From: a virus
Taxonomy: Duplodnaviria > Heunggongvirae > Uroviricota > Caudoviricetes
Direction: 5' to 3' (one strand)
Virus record (IMG/VR): IMGVR_UViG_2778261181_000003
Length of the DNA stretch: 25,108 nt
Position numbers and translations under genes: made by a program. Positions within the stretch are counted from its first letter, which is position 1. Every line of letters starts with the position of its first letter. Below the pieces are notes generated by a model. It worked only from the letters and a program-made list of their open reading frames with translations. It was not told the DNA's origin and did no database searches. Shown piece after piece: positions 1,033 through 12,736 of this stretch.

Positions 1033-1220
1033 AAAAAATGCCCTCCAGTAGAGAGCATTTTTACTGTATGTATAACCAGTGTCAATGTATGAAATCCTAC
1101 GACCATACATCTCACTGAAGCCATAATGAAGTTGGCTATTCTTTTTGCTATGTGAGCATGTAACTTTTGCGGTTAACCTGCGGCTCATTTTTATTTTAGA
1201 CGCAGATATAAAAGCAAAAG

Positions 1221-1412
1221 TTATCGTGAGTTTTTAGTACAGATTTTTTTGGATTTACTAATAGTTCCATCATTGCAAACGAATTTGCCATCTGAGGTAC
1301 AGTGAGAAACACCTCCCTTTTTCCCTGAGCAGGGATAATTTCTAGCATAGGTAGTTAGTGGGTTTAATAACAAAGAACATGACAAAACCACAAAAAATAC
1401 CTTACCAAGCAT
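1221..1412 (-). CDS. Small predicted secreted cysteine-rich protein (63 aa), function unknown
   Basis: ATG at 1410-1412 preceded by GGGAGG RBS, only 15 nt downstream of the CI stop (same strand, looks translationally coupled); N-terminal hydrophobic signal-like segment then about 40 residues with 4 Cys. No family recognised. Confidence 0.5.
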
Positions 1413-2410: not shown

Positions 2411-2920
2411 ATGTTTGATTACCAAGTTTCCAAACATCCACATTTTGATGAAGCCTGTCGTGCATTCGCACTGCGCCACAACCTGGTGCAACTGGCAGAA
2501 CGTGCAGGCATGAATGTGCAGATTCTGCGGAACAAGCTGAACCCAGCTCAACCTCATTTATTAACCGCACCAGAAATCTGGCTGCTTACCGATCTGACTG
2601 AAGATTCAACGCTGGTAGACGGTTTTCTGGCACAGATTCATTGTCTGCCATGTGTACCGATTAATGAGGTGGCAAAAGAGAAACTGCCACATTACGTCAT
2701 GAGTGCAACCGCAGAGATCGGGCGTGTTGCTGCAGGTGCGGTATCTGGCGATGTAAAAACCAGTGCAGGTCGTCGTGATGCCATCAGCAGCATTAACTCT
2801 GTAACACGACTGATGGCACTGGCTGCTGTTTCATTGCAGGCCCGTTTACAGGCTAACCCTGCGATGGCGAGTGCAGTTGATACCGTAACTGGCCTCGGTG
2901 CTTCATTCGGTTTGCTGTGA
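2411..2920 (+). CDS. cII: Phage 186 CII-like lysogeny establishment regulator (169 aa from ATG 2411)
   Basis: Position immediately after apl; length from the first ATG matches the 169 aa I recall for 186 CII; GGAG upstream. Track ORF begins at TTG 2402. Confidence 0.7.
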
Positions 2921-2927
2921 GGTGCTT

Positions 2928-3224
2928 ATGCTGACGAAAGAACCATCATTTGCATCGCTGCTGGTAAAACAAAGCCCGGCAATGCACTACGGTCACGGCT
3001 GGATCATGGGTGAGGATGGTAAACGCTGGCATCCATGTCATTCACAAGATGAATTGCTGTCTGAATTGACCACGAGGAAACGGAGAAAGTCAAAATGTAT
3101 GCAGCGGAAAGTGAAGTGGTTTATCAGTTTCGTTACAGAGGGGAAAGTTATTCAGTACCTGAAGATGATTTGCTCTGTTGTTATCCGTCGTTGTCGGGCG
3201 ATGGCAGTTACTTTTTCACGCTAA
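2928..3224 (+). CDS. Hypothetical early protein (possible fil/dhr-region gene); 3' extent uncertain
   Basis: ATG at 2928 with GAGGTG RBS overlapping the cII stop; N-terminal 55 aa look protein-like, but the 3' third overlaps ORF 3095-3319 in another frame and looks like out-of-frame sequence. Confidence 0.35.
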   Translation: MLTKEPSFASLLVKQSPAMHYGHGWIMGEDGKRWHPCHSQDELLSELTTRKRRKSKCMQRKVKWFISFVTEGKVIQYLKMICSVVIRRCRAMAVTFSR

Positions 3225-4211: not shown

Positions 4212-5065
4212 GCACCATCCTGAAATGGGCGGGAAATAAAACCGCAATTATGTCCGAACTGAAAAAATACCTACCTGCTGGCCCGCGACTGGTTGAACCT
4301 TTCGCGGGTTCCTGTGCTGTGATGATGGAGACGGATTACCCCAGCTATCTGGTTGCGGATATTAATCCTGATTTAATCAACCTCTATAAAAAGATTGCCG
4401 CTGATTGCGAGGCGTTTATATCGCGGACCAGAACTTTGTTTGAGGAAGCAAACAGTGACCTAGCTTATTACAACATAAGGCAGGAGTTTAATTACTCAAC
4501 TGAAATTAATGATTTCATGAAAGCGATATATTTCCTGTATCTCAATCGTCATGGTTACCGTGGGTTATGTCGCTATAACAAGAGCGGGCATTTCAACATT
4601 CCCTACGGTAATTATAAAAATCCGTATTTCCCTGAAAAAGAAATTCGCGCATTTGCAGAAAAAGCCCAGCGGGCAACGTTTATCTGCGCCAGCTTTGATG
4701 AAACGCTGGCGATGTTGAAGGCGGGGGATGTGGTGTATTGCGATCCGCCGTATGACGGCACGTTTTCCGGTTATCACACTGACGGCTTCACTGAAGATGA
4801 CCAGTATCACCTGGCATCCGTTCTTGAATATCGATCATCAGAAGGTCATCCGGTCATTGTTTCTAACAGTGATACATCCCTGATCCGTTCGCTGTATCGC
4901 AATTTCACTCACCACTACATCAAGGCAAAACGCAGCATCGGCGTGTCAGCTGGCGAGAGTAAATCTGCAACAGAAATCATTGCTGTTTCCGGGTCGCGCT
5001 GCTGGATGGGATTTGATCCTTCGCGTGGCGTGGATAGTTCTGCTGTGTACGAGGTGCGTGTATGA
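4208..5065 (+). CDS. dam: DNA adenine methyltransferase, Dam family (N6-adenine MTase)
   Basis: N-terminal LKWAGNK motif (AdoMet binding) and catalytic DPPY motif in the translation; ATG at 4208 overlapping the upstream stop; 3' end overlaps the A gene start. Confidence 0.85.
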
Positions 5066-7476
5066 GTCATGACGATATGAGCAACTCTAGCGGCTTTAAC
5101 GAGGCTGCCGCAGCATTTTCATGGAACGGCCCGAAAAAGGCCATTAACCCTTATCTGGATCCGGCGGAAGTTGCGCCGGAGTCTGCACTTTCAAACCTGA
5201 TCACTCTGTACGCTGCCGATAACGAGCAGGAACAACTGCGCCGCGAGGCACTGAGTGAGCAGGTCTGGGAGCGTTATTTCTTTAATGAATCCCGTGATCC
5301 TGTCCAGCGCGAAATGGAGCAGGATAAGCTCATTAGCCGGGCAAAGCTGGCGCATGAGCAGCAGCGTTTTAACCCGGACATGGTCATTCTGGCAGATGTC
5401 AGCGCCCAGCCTTCTCATATCAGCAAGCCGCTGATGCAACGTATCGAATACTTCAGCAGCCTGGGCAGGCCAAAGGCTTATTCCCGCTATTTGCGTGAGA
5501 CGATTAAGCCATGTCTGGAGCGACTGGATTGTGTACGTGACAGTCAGCTATCTGTTTCTTTCCGTTTTATGGCAAGCCATCAAGGGCTGGAGGGGCTGCT
5601 GATCCTGCCTGAAATGAGCCAGGATCAGGTGAAACGCCTGTCCACCCTGGTAGCAGCGCATATGAGCATGTGTCTTGAGGCCGCTTGTGGTGATTTGTAC
5701 GCCACCGATGACGTTAAGCCAGAAGAAATCCGCAAGACATGGGAAAAGGTGGCTGCGGAAACCCTGCGTCTGGATGTTATCCCGCCTGCGTTTGAGAAAC
5801 TTCGTCGGAAAAGAAACCGCCGCAAACCTGTGCCCTATGAACTCATACCGGGTTCGCTGGCACGTATGCTTTGCGCCGACTGGTGGTATCGAAAATTGTG
5901 GAAGATGCGTTGCGAATGGCGGGAAGAGCAGTTGCGTGCTGTCTGTCTGGTCAGCAAAAAAGCATCTCCCTATGTCAGCTATGAAGCAGTGACGCATAAA
6001 CGTGAGCAGCGCCGCAAGTCGCTGGAGTTTTTCCGTTCTCATGAACTGGTGAACGAAGACGGAGACACGCTGGATATGGAAGATGTGGTAAACGCCAGCA
6101 GCAGCAACCCGGCACATCGCCGCAATGAGATGATGGCCTGCGTTAAAGGTCTGGAGCTTATCGCGGAAATGCGCGGTGACTGCGCCGTTTTCTACACCAT
6201 CACCTGTCCGTCACGTTTCCATTCCACGCTCAATAACGGCAGACCAAACCCGACCTGGACAAATGCGACGGTAAGACAAAGCAGTGATTATCTGGTCGGC
6301 ATGTTTGCTGCATTTCGTAAGGCGATGCACAAAGCCGGATTGCGGTGGTATGGCGTGCGGGTGGCTGAGCCGCATCATGACGGTACTGTGCACTGGCATC
6401 TCATGTGCTTCATGCGTAAAAAAGACCGCCGCGCCATCACTGCATTACTGCGTAAGTTTGCCATCCGTGAAGACCGCGAGGAACTGGGCAATAACACGGG
6501 GCCACGCTTTAAGTCTGAGCTGATTAACCCGCGCAAAGGAACGCCGACAAGCTACATCGCGAAATACATCAGTAAGAACATTGACGGGCGTGGTCTGGCT
6601 GGCGAGATCAGCAAGGAAACGGGTAAATCCCTGCGTGATAACGCTGAATACGTTAATGCCTGGGCGTCTCTGCATCGTGTTCAGCAATTCCGCTTCTTTG
6701 GCATTCCGGGGCGTCAGGCTTACCGTGAACTGCGATTGCTGGCTGGTCAGGCGGCAAGGCAGCAGGGTGACAAAAAAGCAGGTGCGCCGGTACTGGATGA
6801 TCCGCGTCTTGATGCCATTCTGGCTGCTGCTGATGCTGGCTGTTTTGCCACCTACATTATGAAGCAGGGCGGCGTGTTGGTTCCCCGCAAATATCACTTG
6901 ATCAGAACCGCTTATGAAATCAACGAAGAGCCGACCGCCTATGGTGATCACGGTATTCGTATTTATGGCATCTGGTCACCCATTGCAGAGGGCAAGATCT
7001 GCACTCATGCAGTGAAGTGGAAAATGGTTCGTAAGGCCGTTGACGTTCAGGAGGCGGCAGCCGACCAGGGCGCTTGCGCCCCTTGGACTCGTGGCAATAA
7101 CTGTCCCCTTGCTGAAAATTTGTACCAACAAGGGAAAGACAAATCAGCTGATGGAGATACCAGAACGGATATCACCCGTATGGATGACAAGGAGTTGCAC
7201 GATTACCTGCACAGTATGAGCAAAAAAGAGCGCCGGGAACTGGCAGCAAGGTTACGCCTGGTGAAACCGAAACGGCGTAAAGACTACAAACAGCGAATTA
7301 CAGATCATCAGCGACAGCAGCTCGTGTATGAACTGAAGTCCAGGGGATTTGATGGCAGCGAGAAAGAGGTCGATTTACTCCTTCGCGGCGGCAGTATTCC
7401 GTCAGGAGCAGGCCTGCGTATCTTCTATCGGAACCAGCGTTTGCAGGAAGATGATAAGTGGCGGAACCTGTATTAA
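5062..7476 (+). CDS. A: Replication initiation endonuclease A (rolling-circle initiator, P2 gpA-like)
   Basis: 804-aa protein with HUH-type motif ([13 protein letters not shown]) and paired-tyrosine motif ([10 protein letters not shown]) as in the phiX174 A / P2 A superfamily; position after the early genes matches P2/186. Confidence 0.85.
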
Positions 7477-7628: not shown

Positions 7629-7817
7629 ATGCAGGACTATTTTTTGGAGTCTTTGAAGCTCCAGCGCATTGATTTTTTTCTTAAGCTTGTAGCGGCTAGT
7701 GAGTGTAGTGATGAAGAGAAGGGGCTGGCTCTGCAGTGGGTTTCTGAATTGACTGATGAACTCATGGCAAAAATCAGAACCCACGAATACAACCGCTCAA
7801 TGGATGTCATCAGTTGA
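7629..7817 (+). CDS. Small protein downstream of the LexA box (62 aa); possible Tum-like antirepressor N-terminal module
   Basis: Strong RBS AGGAGGAAAG before the ATG; the location after gene A and under a LexA box matches the 186 tum locus. Sequence identity to Tum not verified. Confidence 0.5.
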   Translation: MQDYFLESLKLQRIDFFLKLVAASECSDEEKGLALQWVSELTDELMAKIRTHEYNRSMDVIS

Positions 7818-7827
7818 GGTGACTTTT

Positions 7828-8061
7828 ATGCGCATTGAAATAATGATCGATAAAGAGCAGAAGATTAGCCAGTCTACCCTGGACGCCCTTGAATCCGAGC
7901 TTTACCGCAATCTGCGCCCCCTGTATCCCAAAACGGTAATTCGTATCCGCAAAGGTAGCTCTAACGGTGTGGAACTGACCGGACTGCAACTGGATGAAGA
8001 AAGAAAACAAGTGATGAAAATTATGCAGAAAGTGTGGGAAGACGACAGCTGGCTGCATTAA
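7828..8061 (+). CDS. DinI-family protein (77 aa)
   Basis: Resembles E. coli DinI in length and pattern (MRIE..., acidic C-terminus ending WEDDSWLH versus DinI ...WESADDWF); GAGGTGA RBS; same operon as the LexA-box promoter. Confidence 0.75.
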   Translation: MRIEIMIDKEQKISQSTLDALESELYRNLRPLYPKTVIRIRKGSSNGVELTGLQLDEERKQVMKIMQKVWEDDSWLH

Positions 8062-8205: not shown

Positions 8206-10065
8206 TTAGTGAGGGCTGGTTATTACGTAGTCGCTCTGGTCATCCTCTCCCAGCCTCTCAGGTATTAAATCGTTGAAGGAAATAGTATTACTCTTAGGTT
8301 TTTCTTCAATTGGAAGTTCAGCTACCCTTAATTTGAGCGGCATGGGGCAGACGATACCACTAAAAATACAGGTTCCTGTAGATAGCGTTGGAATCGACTC
8401 TTCAGTCAGTCGATCTATATATGATACTGATTTTTCAATTGCGTACAGATCATTCTGATTAATAAGGCGATGAATAAAATAATTGTGTGCTTGGGATATG
8501 ATTGTCGACGATATATCATTAGGGCGTTGACTGGAAATTGTGATAAAAACTCCAAATTTTCTCCCCTCCTTTATGATTTCCTCAAAAGTTTCCAGACGAT
8601 AATCTCTCCAACTTTCCGTTTCCCGAAAAGAAGTATTAGACAAAATATTGTGGGCTTCATCTATAATGATGTGCAGTGTAGATTTCTCTGTAGACATTTT
8701 CTTCATATTGTAAGCCCACTTGGCTATCAAAAGAGGAAGCGTTTTTTTCATGGTTATATTAACCATATTTAGATTCACAACCGTGAAATTATGTTCACCC
8801 CAAAAGTCAGACTGTCCGGAAGTATCAAATATTTTGGCTATATCTTTACGGTTAGCACTCATTCTATTTATAACTGGTGAAATATGTTCAGGGTTAGACT
8901 TGTTAGATAAATATTCCTGTATTAACTGTAAGTACATAAAGTCCAACAGTTCTTCAATCATATCAGTTTTAAATGAAAAATTGCTTGCAAGACTGAATAG
9001 ATAGGAGCGCTCAGTATCAGCTTCTGTATTGAAAATACTACCACCCCTCAATTTCCATTTATATGCAGTTGAATGATACTCAAGATCAGATATAAGTTCT
9101 GGGTCATCTTTGAAAATTGGGCTAAGAAACTGATTTATAGTATCGCATTTGGGTTTGTCGCTACTAAAGAGATTTTGTCTGACTTTTTTCTTCAGGATAT
9201 TGCGCATAAACTCAAGAGGATTATCAGCAGTCATCACTTTCTTGCGAAACTCAAGAACTCTCTTCAGGAAAGGTTTCTGTGTTTTGTCTGTTGCATCGGT
9301 TAGAACTGAGAGCATATCATGCTCAAGTAGAACCTCTCTGGGTAGAGGAAGTTTGTCACCATTTGCATGGTGCGTGTTGAGATTATAAACCGTCTTCTCG
9401 TCAGTAATACAGCGTGGGGCAGTATATTCTCCATTAAAGTCGAATAGAATAAATTTGCATCTTTCACTAAAGTGGTTGCCGAGAATATGTTTAACTTGGG
9501 CAATACCTGCTTTGTATAGCGCGGCTAGGGTATTTGACTTTCCGCTGCCTGTATTACCGAAAATGGCAATGTGGGAATTAATAAGACCATTGATTGGTAG
9601 TGCAATTTCAATATCTTCAAGATCTGTACGAGTAAACCTCATTACAGTTTCGTCTGCATCAGCTATCTGATGAACCGTCTGTATCATCTCTTCAGTTACC
9701 ACGAAGACTTCATTGCCGATGAGAGGTAGTTCACGCGAACCACCAATGAAGCAACCAGTACGATCAATGTAACCCGTAAGAGTAGAGGTCAGGTATCGCC
9801 GATATCGCCAGGCATCACTGCCGCTCCCAGCGAGATGTTTTTCCTCAATGATTCGTTCCGCTTCAACCTTGCCGATCAGGCTCATGAAACCTTTTTTGAT
9901 CTCAATGAAGCTACCCACTGATACATTTCTTAGAACTTTTCCCTGATAAAACAAGTCACTGAGATTTTTGTTTTTATCGACCAAAATTGTCACAGCGCGT
10001 CCAGAAACCTCACAGACTTCGCCTATACGGAGCACCGCTTCCTCTTCAGTAAAATGCCTGCTCAT
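8206..10065 (-). CDS. HerA-like ATPase (FtsK/HerA superfamily), partner of SIR2 in a SIR2-HerA anti-phage system
   Basis: Walker A GNTGSGKSNT and Walker B HIIIDEAHNI in the translation; ATG at 10063-10065 overlaps the SIR2 stop (ATGA) with GGGAGG RBS; AT-rich relative to the phage backbone. Confidence 0.8.
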   Translation of the reverse strand: MSRHFTEEEAVLRIGEVCEVSGRAVTILVDKNKNLSDLFYQGKVLRNVSVGSFIEIKKGFMSLIGKVEAERIIEEKHLAGSGSDAWRYRRYLTSTLTGYIDRTGCFIGGSRELPLIGNEVFVVTEEMIQTVHQIADADETVMRFTRTDLEDIEIALPINGLINSHIAIFGNTGSGKSNTLAALYKAGIAQVKHILGNHFSERCKFILFDFNGEYTAPRCITDEKTVYNLNTHHANGDKLPLPREVLLEHDMLSVLTDATDKTQKPFLKRVLEFRKKVMTADNPLEFMRNILKKKVRQNLFSSDKPKCDTINQFLSPIFKDDPELISDLEYHSTAYKWKLRGGSIFNTEADTERSYLFSLASNFSFKTDMIEELLDFMYLQLIQEYLSNKSNPEHISPVINRMSANRKDIAKIFDTSGQSDFWGEHNFTVVNLNMVNITMKKTLPLLIAKWAYNMKKMSTEKSTLHIIIDEAHNILSNTSFRETESWRDYRLETFEEIIKEGRKFGVFITISSQRPNDISSTIISQAHNYFIHRLINQNDLYAIEKSVSYIDRLTEESIPTLSTGTCIFSGIVCPMPLKLRVAELPIEEKPKSNTISFNDLIPERLGEDDQSDYVITSPH

Positions 10066-11105
10066 CTCGAGCCTCCCAGATAGCACGTGATAATGTTATT
10101 CATTACCGGAAAATCAACATTTCTTCCCGGCCGATAAATAATCTCTACGTTTGAGTAATCCCGAAATTTCTCCATAAAGCCGTTAACACTGGCCTCATCG
10201 AAAGCAAAGATCAGTAGCTTCAGGGTGGCGTTGCGCAGGGCTTTTTTAGTTATCGTTTCAATGTGCTCATCAGCAAACGAGAACCCAAAGACAATTAGTA
10301 AAGTTGCTTCTTTATCAAGCTCGTTGGAATAGGTTCTCAGTAAATCATAATAAACGTTCTGTAGTAGAGTCTCTTTAAACTTCTCCTTACGTGGAAGAAT
10401 AAGTGCATGAGCAAGTACCCATCCTTTCATTTCGGCTAGGGTGGGAAAGTCAAGCGGCTTAATATCTGCAATACGATAAATGATTTTCCCTTTAGAATGC
10501 TGCCAAGAGAGCGAACCATGAAGTTTTATAAGGTTAACAGTAGGAAGCTCAACTTTATAATTATACAGATTTCCGGTTGCACTTACAGAATGATTAAAGC
10601 TACCCGCATCAAATTCCGCATCTCCCAAAATACTTGCTCTTCTATTGAATCCATCATTAAAAAGAATATTGTTATTACGTGTGGCAGCTTCTTCGATGAA
10701 TAAATCATAATTAGTTGTAAAAACGTTAATACGCCTCGGAAGTAGGCCAGTTCGGCGGCGGGTCAGTATCTTTTCCAGTGAAGACATAAATGCATCATAA
10801 TTTGCACGGGTACATTCCAAATCGGTGATCACCTGAGGTGCGAAGGGGGTGCCGTAGCCGCGCTTCAACATGCATTCATGAGGTAGCCAAACATCTGACA
10901 AAAAGTCAGCTGCCATCCTTAAGTATTCATCTTCCTGTTCATCATTAATAAGCTGCTGAAGATCCGTTTCGATTGTCCCCAGTACTTTAATCGCTGGGAG
11001 GGATGCACCTGATCCGATGAGAAAGTTAATGTTAGCTGACTGAAATATCCGCTCTAAGTAGTCTCGGTCACTATCGTTACCGTAGTATGCGCGCTTGACT
11101 GCCAT
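10062..11105 (-). CDS. SIR2-domain protein (predicted NADase effector) of a SIR2-HerA anti-phage system
   Basis: Translation shows glycine-rich NAD-binding loop FLIGSGAS, the SIR2 TNYD motif (VFTTNYD) and a downstream KLHGS histidine; ATG at 11103-11105 with AAGGA RBS; immediately upstream of and coupled to the HerA gene. Confidence 0.8.
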   Translation of the reverse strand: MAVKRAYYGNDSDRDYLERIFQSANINFLIGSGASLPAIKVLGTIETDLQQLINDEQEDEYLRMAADFLSDVWLPHECMLKRGYGTPFAPQVITDLECTRANYDAFMSSLEKILTRRRTGLLPRRINVFTTNYDLFIEEAATRNNNILFNDGFNRRASILGDAEFDAGSFNHSVSATGNLYNYKVELPTVNLIKLHGSLSWQHSKGKIIYRIADIKPLDFPTLAEMKGWVLAHALILPRKEKFKETLLQNVYYDLLRTYSNELDKEATLLIVFGFSFADEHIETITKKALRNATLKLLIFAFDEASVNGFMEKFRDYSNVEIIYRPGRNVDFPVMNNIITCYLGGSR

Positions 11106-11529
11106 CTTATCCTTCCACAAAACATTGGATTAGTCTGTAATTTATTTAATCTTAACGCCGAGCTCAATACTTTAACATCACTTCTTCTGGCGATTGCTAT
11201 GAGCCCTTCTTGATAAAAAGTTCGATCGGGAAACTGATCCTTTATGCCACAAGTTTTCTAGCTATCCTCAAAAAATTGGTGTTAAAACTGTGCCAACAAA
11301 GTTGCAAGGTTCGCTTCTCGCTCACAGCGAACTTTCATCTTTGTAAACCCGTATGATTCGCTTTTCAGCAGTCATTCAGATACGGATTTACGCTTCCCTT
11401 GGCAGCGCATGACTATGACGCATGAGATCGCATGATCGTTTGAGGATCGTTTTTGCTGAAGTCAGCCAGAACTGGCGTGCTTTTGCTTATGTCATGCAGG
11501 TGCATGAAAACCACTACATAAAGCGGGCA

Positions 11530-11674: not shown

Positions 11675-12736
11675 ATGCTTAAAACAAATAAGGTATTTAT
11701 TGACACACAAACGTACGTAAAGGCTGGTCTTCATTTTGAGGGGGTAGCATTTAAAGCTTTCCATGAATTATGTGCGAAAGGTGATTTAGTCTTAATTACA
11801 ACTACAGTTGTAGAGAGAGAAGTAAAAGGTAAAATAGAGGAATCAATAAAGGATGCTCTGCAGGCTATAAACACAGTACAAAGAAAAGCTAGGCTTTTGA
11901 ATAGTATTGATAATGGACCGCTCCATGGTTTTTTTCAGCAATTTAACGAACATGAAATTCACGAAGCAGCACAAAAAGTTTTTGATGATTTTTTGAAAGG
12001 ATGTCACGCCAAATTAGCTACAATAGAAGTGATAGATCTTAATGAGGTTTTAGATAAATACTTTGGCAAAGAACCACCATTTGGGCAAAATAAGAAAAAA
12101 AGTGAGTTTCCTGATGCAATCACTTTAGCTGCGGTAGAGCGATTTGTTAATGATGAAGATGTGTATATCATTTCTGAGGATAGTGACTTAAAAAATTATT
12201 GTGATGGTAAAAACAATCTTCATCAAATTGATTCACTTGATAAGTTTCTAGGTGAATACAATACGCATACAAACGAATTAAGTAATAAATTGATGCAGTT
12301 TATCGAAAGCAAACGTGAAGACATAAGAGCGGACGTAATTGCCCAACTCAATGATGCCGATGGATATAACGTTTCAACTTGGGAAGACGCTGAATTGGAT
12401 TCATTTGAAGTCGTCAATATTGATGACTTTGAACCATCAATAATTAAGATTGACAATAATTATTGTCTAGCGACCTTCTCTGTTTCTGTAGATTTTGAAG
12501 TTACTGTTTCTGGTCCAGACTTTAATAATGGGTATTGGGATAGCGAAGATAAAGTAATGATTCCAATGGAGACAACCACACGAACTGAAGTTCAAGAGAT
12601 TAGTTTCGATATTGAAATTGAAGTTATGTATGAAATCGAGGATGGTGAATTAACAGATATCGCATTTGATGTGAATATTGATAAGTTATCCCGAGGGATT
12701 GAGTTCTCTATTGAAGAAAATAATTTTGAATATTAA
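11675..12736 (+). CDS. PIN-like nuclease-domain protein with acidic C-terminal domain of unknown function (353 aa); candidate defence or abortive-infection gene
   Basis: N-terminal half has a PIN-type acidic-residue pattern (KVFIDTQTY, VVEREV, EFPDAITLAAVERF, VYIISEDSDL); C-terminal about 170 aa is D/E-rich and beta-like; very AT-rich gene with its own 550-bp upstream region and a strong downstream terminator. Confidence 0.7.
   Translation: MLKTNKVFIDTQTYVKAGLHFEGVAFKAFHELCAKGDLVLITTTVVEREVKGKIEESIKDALQAINTVQRKARLLNSIDNGPLHGFFQQFNEHEIHEAAQKVFDDFLKGCHAKLATIEVIDLNEVLDKYFGKEPPFGQNKKKSEFPDAITLAAVERFVNDEDVYIISEDSDLKNYCDGKNNLHQIDSLDKFLGEYNTHTNELSNKLMQFIESKREDIRADVIAQLNDADGYNVSTWEDAELDSFEVVNIDDFEPSIIKIDNNYCLATFSVSVDFEVTVSGPDFNNGYWDSEDKVMIPMETTTRTEVQEISFDIEIEVMYEIEDGELTDIAFDVNIDKLSRGIEFSIEENNFEY

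Follow-up and report, generated by a model that had tools for sequence, protein, structure and literature searches.

A temperate phage that carries an extra open reading frame (ORF) between its repressor gene and its integrase gene raises two questions, namely whether the ORF is a gene at all and what its product would do in the lysogen. We addressed both for a 63-codon ORF between cI and int in IMG/VR virus record IMGVR_UViG_2778261181_000003, a stretch of 25,108 nucleotides (nt) that is a P2/186-like prophage of Escherichia coli and is referred to below as the window. A first-pass annotation had described this ORF as a gene for a small secreted cysteine-rich peptide and had not recognised its family. 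Here we report that the ORF, designated the ydcA-like gene, matches the YdcA family; judged by its sequence and its relatives, it is very probably a real gene whose product is an exported mini-protein of the lysogeny operon. What the peptide does is answered more tentatively below.

Family membership, selection and predicted export

The ydcA-like coding sequence occupies positions 1221-1412 on the minus strand and consists of 63 codons plus a stop codon (1221-1223), with its ATG at 1412-1410 in the mechanical ORF list. Direct reading of the minus strand places a GGGAGG Shine-Dalgarno sequence at 1418-1423, separated from the ATG by a 5-nt spacer (AAACT), and the TAG stop codon of cI at 1430-1428, from which 15 nt lead to the ydcA-like start codon. 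These positions agree with the first-pass description of a 63-residue ORF with a GGGAGG ribosome-binding site, 15 nt after the cI stop and on the same strand. Compared with NCBIfam, the protein matched NF007463 (PRK10040/YdcA group) with an E-value of 5e-34 and 115.8 bits, against a curated cut-off of 93, with residues 5-63 covered; the sister models NF007462 and NF007464 were matched below their cut-offs (68.5 versus 118 for NF007462, chromosomal YdcA proper). The protein also matched phrog_6000 (function unknown; E = 2e-34), and both the representative of its 90%-identity cluster and its homologues carry a precomputed assignment to PF27300, whose Pfam name is YdcA. An identical RefSeq protein, WP_000900883.1, is labelled 'YdcA family protein'; it belongs to an E. 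coli prophage integrated beside rcdA and is flanked in RefSeq by 'phage repressor protein CI' and 'phage integrase'. The entity is not new to the databases: RefSeq has the identical protein, NCBIfam has a model dedicated to the group, and PHROG and Pfam each list a family for it. The family left unnamed in the first-pass annotation is recognisable as YdcA. Three other labels were discarded: GULLO2, a sub-threshold Pfam match obtained with a Pfam copy that lacked the PF27300 model; 'Conjugal transfer protein', under which UniRef lists the cluster, an automatic label without support; and the LDL-receptor class A and lysozyme matches of a domain-only profile against the PDB, which are cysteine-composition noise.

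The best-known relative is YdcA of E. coli K-12 (b1419), a protein of 57 residues that has been described as of unknown function, with a signal sequence and a predicted periplasmic location (bioRxiv 10.1101/2024.02.12.579971). It belongs to the same family as the phage protein (PF27300, PRK10040 models NF007462/NF007463/NF007464) and, like it, combines a predicted Sec leader with a basic four-cysteine core of about 35 residues, over which the two proteins are 57% identical. The YdcA core can be written as P-C-S-G-K-K-G-G-[VI]-S-H-C-x(3-5)-F-[VI]-C-x-D-G-x-x-S-x-S-K-x-x-C, and the window protein has all four of its cysteines as well as K32, G33, G34, F44, D48, G49, S52, S54 and K55. The two genes differ in their settings: K-12 ydcA is chromosomal and lies beside rydC and hokB, whereas the phage copy sits in a prophage immunity operon and belongs to the NF007463 subfamily.

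The family is also under clear constraint. Among prophage homologues (14 distinct DNA versions, 32-codon core), the proportions of synonymous (pS) and nonsynonymous (pN) differences were 0.539 and 0.073, giving a ratio of nonsynonymous to synonymous substitution (dN/dS) of about 0.08. A second set of 34 DNA versions gave a pS of 0.78, which is saturated, and a pN of 0.145. The copy in strain BL21(DE3) differs from the window gene by 12 nt changes and a single residue change (R24K). This substitution pattern indicates that the ydcA-like ORF encodes a genuine protein on which purifying selection is strong. The opposite possibility, a chance ORF or one that is merely regulatory and serves to couple or space cI and int, could draw on the 2-nt gap that would couple the ORF translationally to int in some prophages. 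It retains a negligible probability, since the residue sequence is strongly conserved despite saturated synonymous change, which effectively refutes it; family members also occur in plasmids, tail-gene regions and chromosomes and pass curated hidden Markov model (HMM) thresholds.

The N-terminus reads as a Sec signal peptide of residues 1-23 (1344-1412, minus strand), composed of MLGK, a 12-residue hydrophobic core and NPLTTYA, with cleavage predicted after Ala23. By leader heuristics, the n-region holds one Lys, the h-region spans 12 residues, a Pro stands at position −6 and T-Y-A occupies −3 to −1; the Kyte-Doolittle means are 2.4-2.7 over residues 5-17. Position −1 is Ala in all of 84 relatives, and position −3 is A, S, T, V or G in 74 of them. 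When 30 and 47 relatives were aligned, the first 20-25 residues proved hydrophobic but divergent, and the sequence is nearly fixed from about residue 25. Heuristics and family conservation thus strongly suggest Sec export, with a putative cleavage after Ala23, in keeping with the signal-peptide-like N-terminus noted in the first-pass annotation. We also considered a lipoprotein anchored through Cys12, because V-L-S-C at residues 9-12 bears a loose resemblance to a lipobox and one homologue carries the UniRef name 'Lipoprotein'. This is highly improbable: Cys12 is too near the N-terminus, hydrophobic residues go on beyond it, the leader cysteine is not conserved (65 of the 84 homologues have none), and the conserved Ala at −1 lies further downstream.

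Cleavage at Ala23 would release a mature peptide of 40 residues, R24-R63 (1224-1343, minus strand), of about 4.3 kDa and with a net charge of about +7. It holds four conserved cysteines (C28, C38, C46 and C58) and many Lys, Ser and Gly residues, matching the mature part of about 40 residues that had been described beforehand. Among 47 aligned sequences, P27, K32, C38, F44, C46, G49, S52, S54, K55 and C58 are invariant, and A23, N25, C28, S29, G30, K31, G33, G34, V35, H37 and D48 are at least 90% conserved. Across the family, the net charge of the mature domain averages +6, and 79 of the 84 relatives have exactly four cysteines in it. AlphaFold2, run with the family alignment, returned predicted local distance difference test (pLDDT) values of 85-92 for residues 31-60, with a short beta-hairpin (35-38/44-46) and a helix at residues 3-15. 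We therefore picture, as a model, a peptide that would be exported by Sec, cut after Ala23 and oxidised, presumably via DsbA; the product would be a beta-hairpin peptide of about 4.3 kDa pinned by two disulfides and retained in the periplasm near the outer membrane.

Placement in the lysogeny operon and distribution

In the window, cI, the ydcA-like gene and int all lie on the minus strand. The 186-type CI repressor gene cI (1428-1997, RefSeq start) was identified by Phage_CI_repr (3e-31) and Phage_CI_C (5e-29) in Pfam, and the tyrosine integrase gene int (1-1032; 'phage integrase' in RefSeq) by Int_N (2e-32) and Phage_integrase (6e-22). The int gene, whose stop codon opens the window, is the last lysogeny-operon gene within it. 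The mechanical ORF of cI extends to a GTG start at 2084 (218 residues) and spans the pR-like promoter described below; the RefSeq start at 1997, giving 189-190 residues, is plausibly the better choice. On the opposite side of the switch are a Cox/Apl-like gene, cII (Phage_CP76, 3e-42), fil and replication genes. This arrangement resembles phage 186, which likewise has a CI with Phage_CI_repr and Phage_CI_C, an Apl/Cox-like gene, a CII (CP76) and Fil, and whose leftward lysogenic operon, cI-int-orf69, is driven by pL and the CII-dependent pE. The difference is that cI and int of phage 186 overlap by one base and enclose no ydcA, whereas the window adds the ydcA-like gene and a spacer of 188 nt.

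A pR-like promoter (TTGACA-17-TAAAGT, 10 of 12 matches in the promoter scan) is located at 2025-2053 on the plus strand, faces the apl/cII early operon and matches the position of pR of phage 186. It marks the switch region, which would be the expected origin of the leftward cI-ydcA transcript. The promoter scan found no promoter-like site upstream of the ydcA-like gene on the minus strand, and no minus-strand terminator-like site was found between 1412 and 1997, except weak hairpins within cI at about 1868-1883. The gene thus lies as a member of a 186-type lysogeny operon does (operon layout as in the phage 186 annotation), on the strand of cI and int and with no terminator after cI. Synteny and the comparison with phage 186 make co-transcription of the ydcA-like gene with cI likely, and from its position behind cI the peptide is probably made in every such lysogen. 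As a separate observation, a near-consensus sigma-70 promoter-like site (TTAACA-17-TATAAT, 11 of 12 matches) occurs at 1432-1460 on the plus strand, where cI and ydcA meet, and is directed antisense into cI; either an antisense promoter or a chance occurrence in AT-rich DNA would account for it.

The same order was found well beyond the window. Of 5,426 complete E. coli genomes, 630 carry the ydcA-like gene; one of them is BL21(DE3), where it occupies NC_012892.2 873696-873887 (5001-5192 of our locus L173) at the same attachment site. In BL21(DE3), the arrangement int-ydcA-cI belongs to a defective P2/186-like prophage at rcdA, an element that also holds a retron St85 effector gene. In IMG/VR, several hundred viral contigs carry relatives (493 and 331 confirmed in two scans). 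To describe their gene order we used 80 viral loci fetched with a distant query, which encode 36 distinct proteins and in which homologues were located by HMM search. In 35 of the 80, the full order was cII/apl (opposite strand)-cI-ydcA-int; CI was directly upstream in 43 loci and within two genes upstream in 49, and int was within two genes downstream in 44. The order cI-ydcA-int is found in many P2/186-like prophages, namely in Escherichia, Yersinia, Enterobacter and Haemophilus. The junctions differ among them: in the Yersinia type, a gap of 47 nt follows cI and a spacer of 97 nt precedes int; in the Enterobacter type, 2 nt lie between the ydcA stop and the int ATG, and this order supports co-transcription because int can be reached only through ydcA transcription. 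The Haemophilus phages HP2 and S2 carry a 60-residue homologous ORF (2920-3102 of locus L001) with leader and core, right behind a 186/HP1-type cI. It differs from the window gene in that its start overlaps the cI stop, it is absent from the annotation of the phage records, and an exported OB-fold-like gene, orf1(S) (PF12869), stands between it and int. In the literature, we found no description of cI-ydcA-int as a conserved order across Peduoviridae or of the unannotated HP2/S2 ORF as part of it.

Family members also occur in other phage contexts, such as the early region of Mu-like phages, the interval between tape-measure and minor tail genes of lambda-like phages, and Moraxella phages, as well as on small mobilisable plasmids of 3.9 to 5.4 kb. 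The YdcA gene is therefore mobile cargo, and its commonest home among the sampled phages is the P2/186/HP1-like immunity operon. In Acinetobacter baumannii prophages (loci L168-L172, around 5001-5600), a DUF4236 gene invariably stands behind the YdcA gene, within an accessory-gene island between the tail-tube and tape-measure genes that also includes HicAB, SocA/Panacea and YedD genes. A conserved downstream partner gene was considered and rejected: HP2 orf1(S), the Acinetobacter DUF4236 proteins and the 243-319-residue proteins of the small plasmids are mutually unrelated, and the window has none of them.

The base composition is moron-like. The guanine-plus-cytosine (G+C) content is 35% for the ydcA-like gene and 37% for the spacer before int, compared with 50% for the whole window, and we regard the gene as a low-G+C accessory gene ('moron') inserted between cI and int of a 186-like prophage. 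The site in the lysogeny operon and the low G+C content support the first-pass suggestion of a moron position; a terminator-like hairpin lies downstream, and no promoter of its own was found for the gene. Classical lysogen-expressed accessory genes of temperate coliphages are bor, lom and rex of lambda and old, tin and fun of P2. The ydcA-like gene resembles these as an extra low-G+C gene in or beside the immunity region that would be active in the prophage and would serve the host or counter other phages. It differs in having no sequence kinship with them and in seeming to ride on the cI transcript.

Nuclease association, Dis2 likeness and possible functions

A profile search of 1.84 billion representative proteins yielded 445 family clusters (E ≤ 0.001), and we examined the 26 longest of the top 150. 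Five of the 26 have the leader and the YdcA domain ahead of a nuclease domain: one homologue of staphylococcal nuclease (SNase, 5e-24), three Endonuclease_NS (down to 8e-33) and one domain of the PLD type (PLDc_2, 5e-19). Another member is fused to a VasL domain of the type VI secretion system (T6SS), and several long members have a C-terminal Cys-rich 'GPRGG' segment that matches PBCV_basic_adap. A domain-only profile search gave 903 clusters, and the 120 listed were all single-domain proteins. As the nuclease fusions are rare metagenomic singletons, independent support was sought in genome loci. Among 80 species-level genome loci, an exported SNase is fused to the YdcA domain (L234) or adjacent on the same strand (L224, L226, L227, L246, L250 and L252) in seven, from at least four lineages of alpha- and gammaproteobacterial genomes. 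Given a frequency of roughly one SNase gene in several thousand, chance would place about 0.04 such neighbours in 80 loci, a rough estimate rather than a computed background. In one viral contig (L089), genes for a repressor, a membrane protein, an exported SNase and YdcA stand in a row, with the SNase-YdcA pairing at 2084-2761. The presence of one N-terminal module on three unrelated nuclease folds points to a substrate-binding or localising role and argues against a fold-specific inhibitor, and the strongly basic, Ser/Lys-rich surface would fit polyanion binding. Our literature search found no report of an association between YdcA and nucleases.

A second line of evidence came from the PDB, in which the best match was chain AN of 7MUC/7MUD, Dis2 (Lpg0823) of the Dot/Icm type IVB secretion system of Legionella pneumophila. 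The match had an E-value of 2.6e-5 with the full-length family profile, leader included, and 2.2e-4 with the mature window peptide alone, and hhalign gave a probability of 76%. Fragments of Dis2 orthologues were retrieved (P0339 and P0340), and a truncated one carries a precomputed PF27300 assignment. Dis2 and the family share the motif C-x-K-x-GG-[IV]-x-x-C...G-x-x-V-C-N-[DN]-G-x-x-S, and Dis2 is exported, disulfide-pinned and periplasmic, as is predicted for the phage protein. They differ in that Dis2 has two tandem lobes and five disulfides and is part of a secretion machine, whereas the phage protein corresponds to one lobe with four cysteines; no type IV secretion genes were seen in the window. 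The Legionella protein has been seen in the periplasmic cap at the outer membrane, with two lobes and five disulfides (PMC8486379); it touches the lipoproteins DotK, DotC and DotD close to the outer membrane, is not required for secretion, and is said to have no obvious homologues outside Legionellales (PMC12716638). From these sequence matches, whose statistical support is moderate, we consider it probable though not proven that Dis2 is a remote homologue built as a tandem of YdcA-like lobes. If so, the homology would support export and disulfide formation for the YdcA fold and would provide the first experimental structure for the YdcA family; we found no mention of this relationship in the literature.

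We propose the following course of events in the lysogen. The ydcA-like gene would be transcribed with cI from a pL-type promoter and, during establishment, from pE, as in phage 186. After export and oxidation, the periplasmic peptide would serve as a small basic module for binding, and the ligand we favour is DNA or a nuclease-DNA complex; the prophage would thereby gain an envelope barrier against incoming foreign DNA. For the entire chain, that is, a lysogen-made, exported mini-protein linked to DNA or nucleases, we put the chances slightly below even. The activity by itself, binding of a polyanion (most probably DNA) or aid to extracytoplasmic nucleases, is a possibility that we hold tentatively, and an in vivo exclusion role, in which lysogens express an envelope barrier to foreign DNA, is rather doubtful. 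More broadly, the YdcA domain might be an unrecognised extracytoplasmic DNA-binding or nuclease-partner module, with the phage and plasmid forms intercepting incoming DNA and Dis2 as a tandem duplication of the domain, a generalisation that we regard as unlikely as a whole. Were interception to take place, its targets would be superinfecting phage genomes and transforming or conjugative DNA, possibly in concert with periplasmic nucleases of the host such as EndA, and P2/186-like prophages would have a constitutive exclusion function wired to the repressor transcript.

Several points weigh against this proposal. The nuclease fusions are few and scattered, and most family members, including the window gene, stand alone with no nuclease near. 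The consensus promoter scan of the window located no equivalent of pL. With the domain-only profile the Dis2 match was marginal (E = 0.016), Dis2 provided the top two Foldseek matches but the structure searches were not significant, and the contacts reported for Dis2 are with lipoproteins, not with DNA. In the literature, we found no functional study for the accessions or for 'YdcA family protein', and no transcript, protein or phenotype of a phage copy; a paper of 2026 still calls the YdcA family 'poorly characterized' (PMC13541209). The protein had no PADLOC match at E ≤ 0.1 in the 2023 library, which is weak evidence because that library contains few superinfection-exclusion proteins. The only phenotype reported for any family member, that of chromosomal ydcA, suggests stress tolerance, not DNA.

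That phenotype is the basis of another explanation, in which the phage copy would do the reported job of chromosomal ydcA as an envelope or acid-stress tolerance factor that helps the lysogen withstand organic acid or low pH, a fitness-type lysogenic conversion with no role for DNA. Deletion of ydcA sensitised E. coli W to 300 mM 3-hydroxypropionate (PMC7642389), and acid induction of ydcA via YdcI is cited there second-hand; the 57% identity to K-12 YdcA and the adjacency of K-12 ydcA to rydC, a small RNA gene linked to membrane acid resistance, point the same way. The deletion result is a single study of the chromosomal paralogue without a mechanism, and its phenotype was overridden by deletion of yieP. 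A stress function would also leave the recurrent nuclease fusions and neighbours, and the concentration of the family on phages and small plasmids, unexplained, and we therefore judge it improbable as the main role, though worth keeping in view. The Dis2 likeness can be read differently as well, as the mark of an outer-membrane-proximal protein adaptor that docks on lipoproteins or envelope complexes, tethers the nucleases in the fusions and, in the lysogen, could shield or alter a receptor or an entry complex used by phages. Dis2 was the top PDB match in three sequence searches as well as leading in Foldseek, an orthologue fragment carries PF27300, Dis2 touches DotK, DotC and DotD (PMC12716638), and one family member is fused to VasL; even so, an adaptor seems to us somewhat less likely still than a stress factor.

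A secreted cationic toxin or bacteriocin-like antimicrobial peptide would be small, cationic (about +7) and Cys-stabilised, as the predicted peptide is, and there is a weak likeness to the Pin-II proteinase inhibitor motif (E = 0.07-0.7). That likeness was rejected in its own right, as the E-values are not significant, the second cysteine is out of register and Pin-II has eight cysteines. No immunity, processing or export genes occur nearby, among either the window ORFs or the RefSeq annotation, E. coli has single-copy chromosomal paralogues, and with only a predicted Sec leader the peptide would be expected to stop in the periplasm; a toxin is accordingly very unlikely. Like the toxin, the lipoprotein and the meaningless ORF discussed above are unlikely. 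Returning to the proposed periplasmic DNA- or nuclease-linked peptide, its merit is that, because the domain is repeatedly found with exported nucleases, a 'hypothetical protein' becomes the subject of a testable hypothesis on periplasmic DNA handling by prophages. Should the peptide prove to be a stress-tolerance factor or to have no phenotype, the gene would be an ordinary accessory gene. Together, the placement, the nuclease link and the Dis2 kinship make a modestly interesting lead, cheap to test because BL21(DE3) has the gene, rather than a surprising discovery.

The spacer before int and other features of the prophage

The first-pass annotation had presented the gene as coupled between cI and int. 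The coupling is tight on the cI side (15 nt) and does not extend to int, from which the gene is separated by a structured spacer of 188 nt (1033-1220, minus strand, ydcA-like stop to int ATG). RNA folding gave this spacer a free energy of −55.5 kcal/mol (z = −4.7), and none of 200 shuffled sequences was equally stable. It ends in a terminator- or attenuator-like hairpin followed by a U run (1034-1062, minus strand), with a 13-bp stem present in both the minimum free energy and the centroid structures. The Shine-Dalgarno sequence of int (GGAGGG, 1041-1046) is buried in the 3′ arm of this hairpin, immediately before the int AUG, and the hairpin may attenuate int expression from the lysogenic transcript. 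A promoter-like site (TTGACA-17-AAAAAT) lies within the spacer at 1085-1057 on the minus strand. As read from the sequence, a transcript from this site would begin inside the 5′ arm of the hairpin, so that the int ribosome-binding site would be freed. Yersinia-type prophages have an analogous hairpin of different sequence. An Rfam scan of the whole window gave no matches.

The remaining observations concern other genes of the prophage. An anti-phage defence pair on the minus strand, SIR2 (10062-11120) and HerA (8206-10086), occupies the variable stretch that separates the replication gene from the portal and terminase genes, with PADLOC E-values of 6e-211 and 6e-267, respectively, and a G+C content of 40%. 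Adjoining this pair is a gene for a 353-residue PIN_12-domain protein (11675-12736, plus strand; 1.5e-25) with no PADLOC match. A DinI-like protein (1.3e-22) is encoded at 7756-8061 on the plus strand, behind the replication gene.

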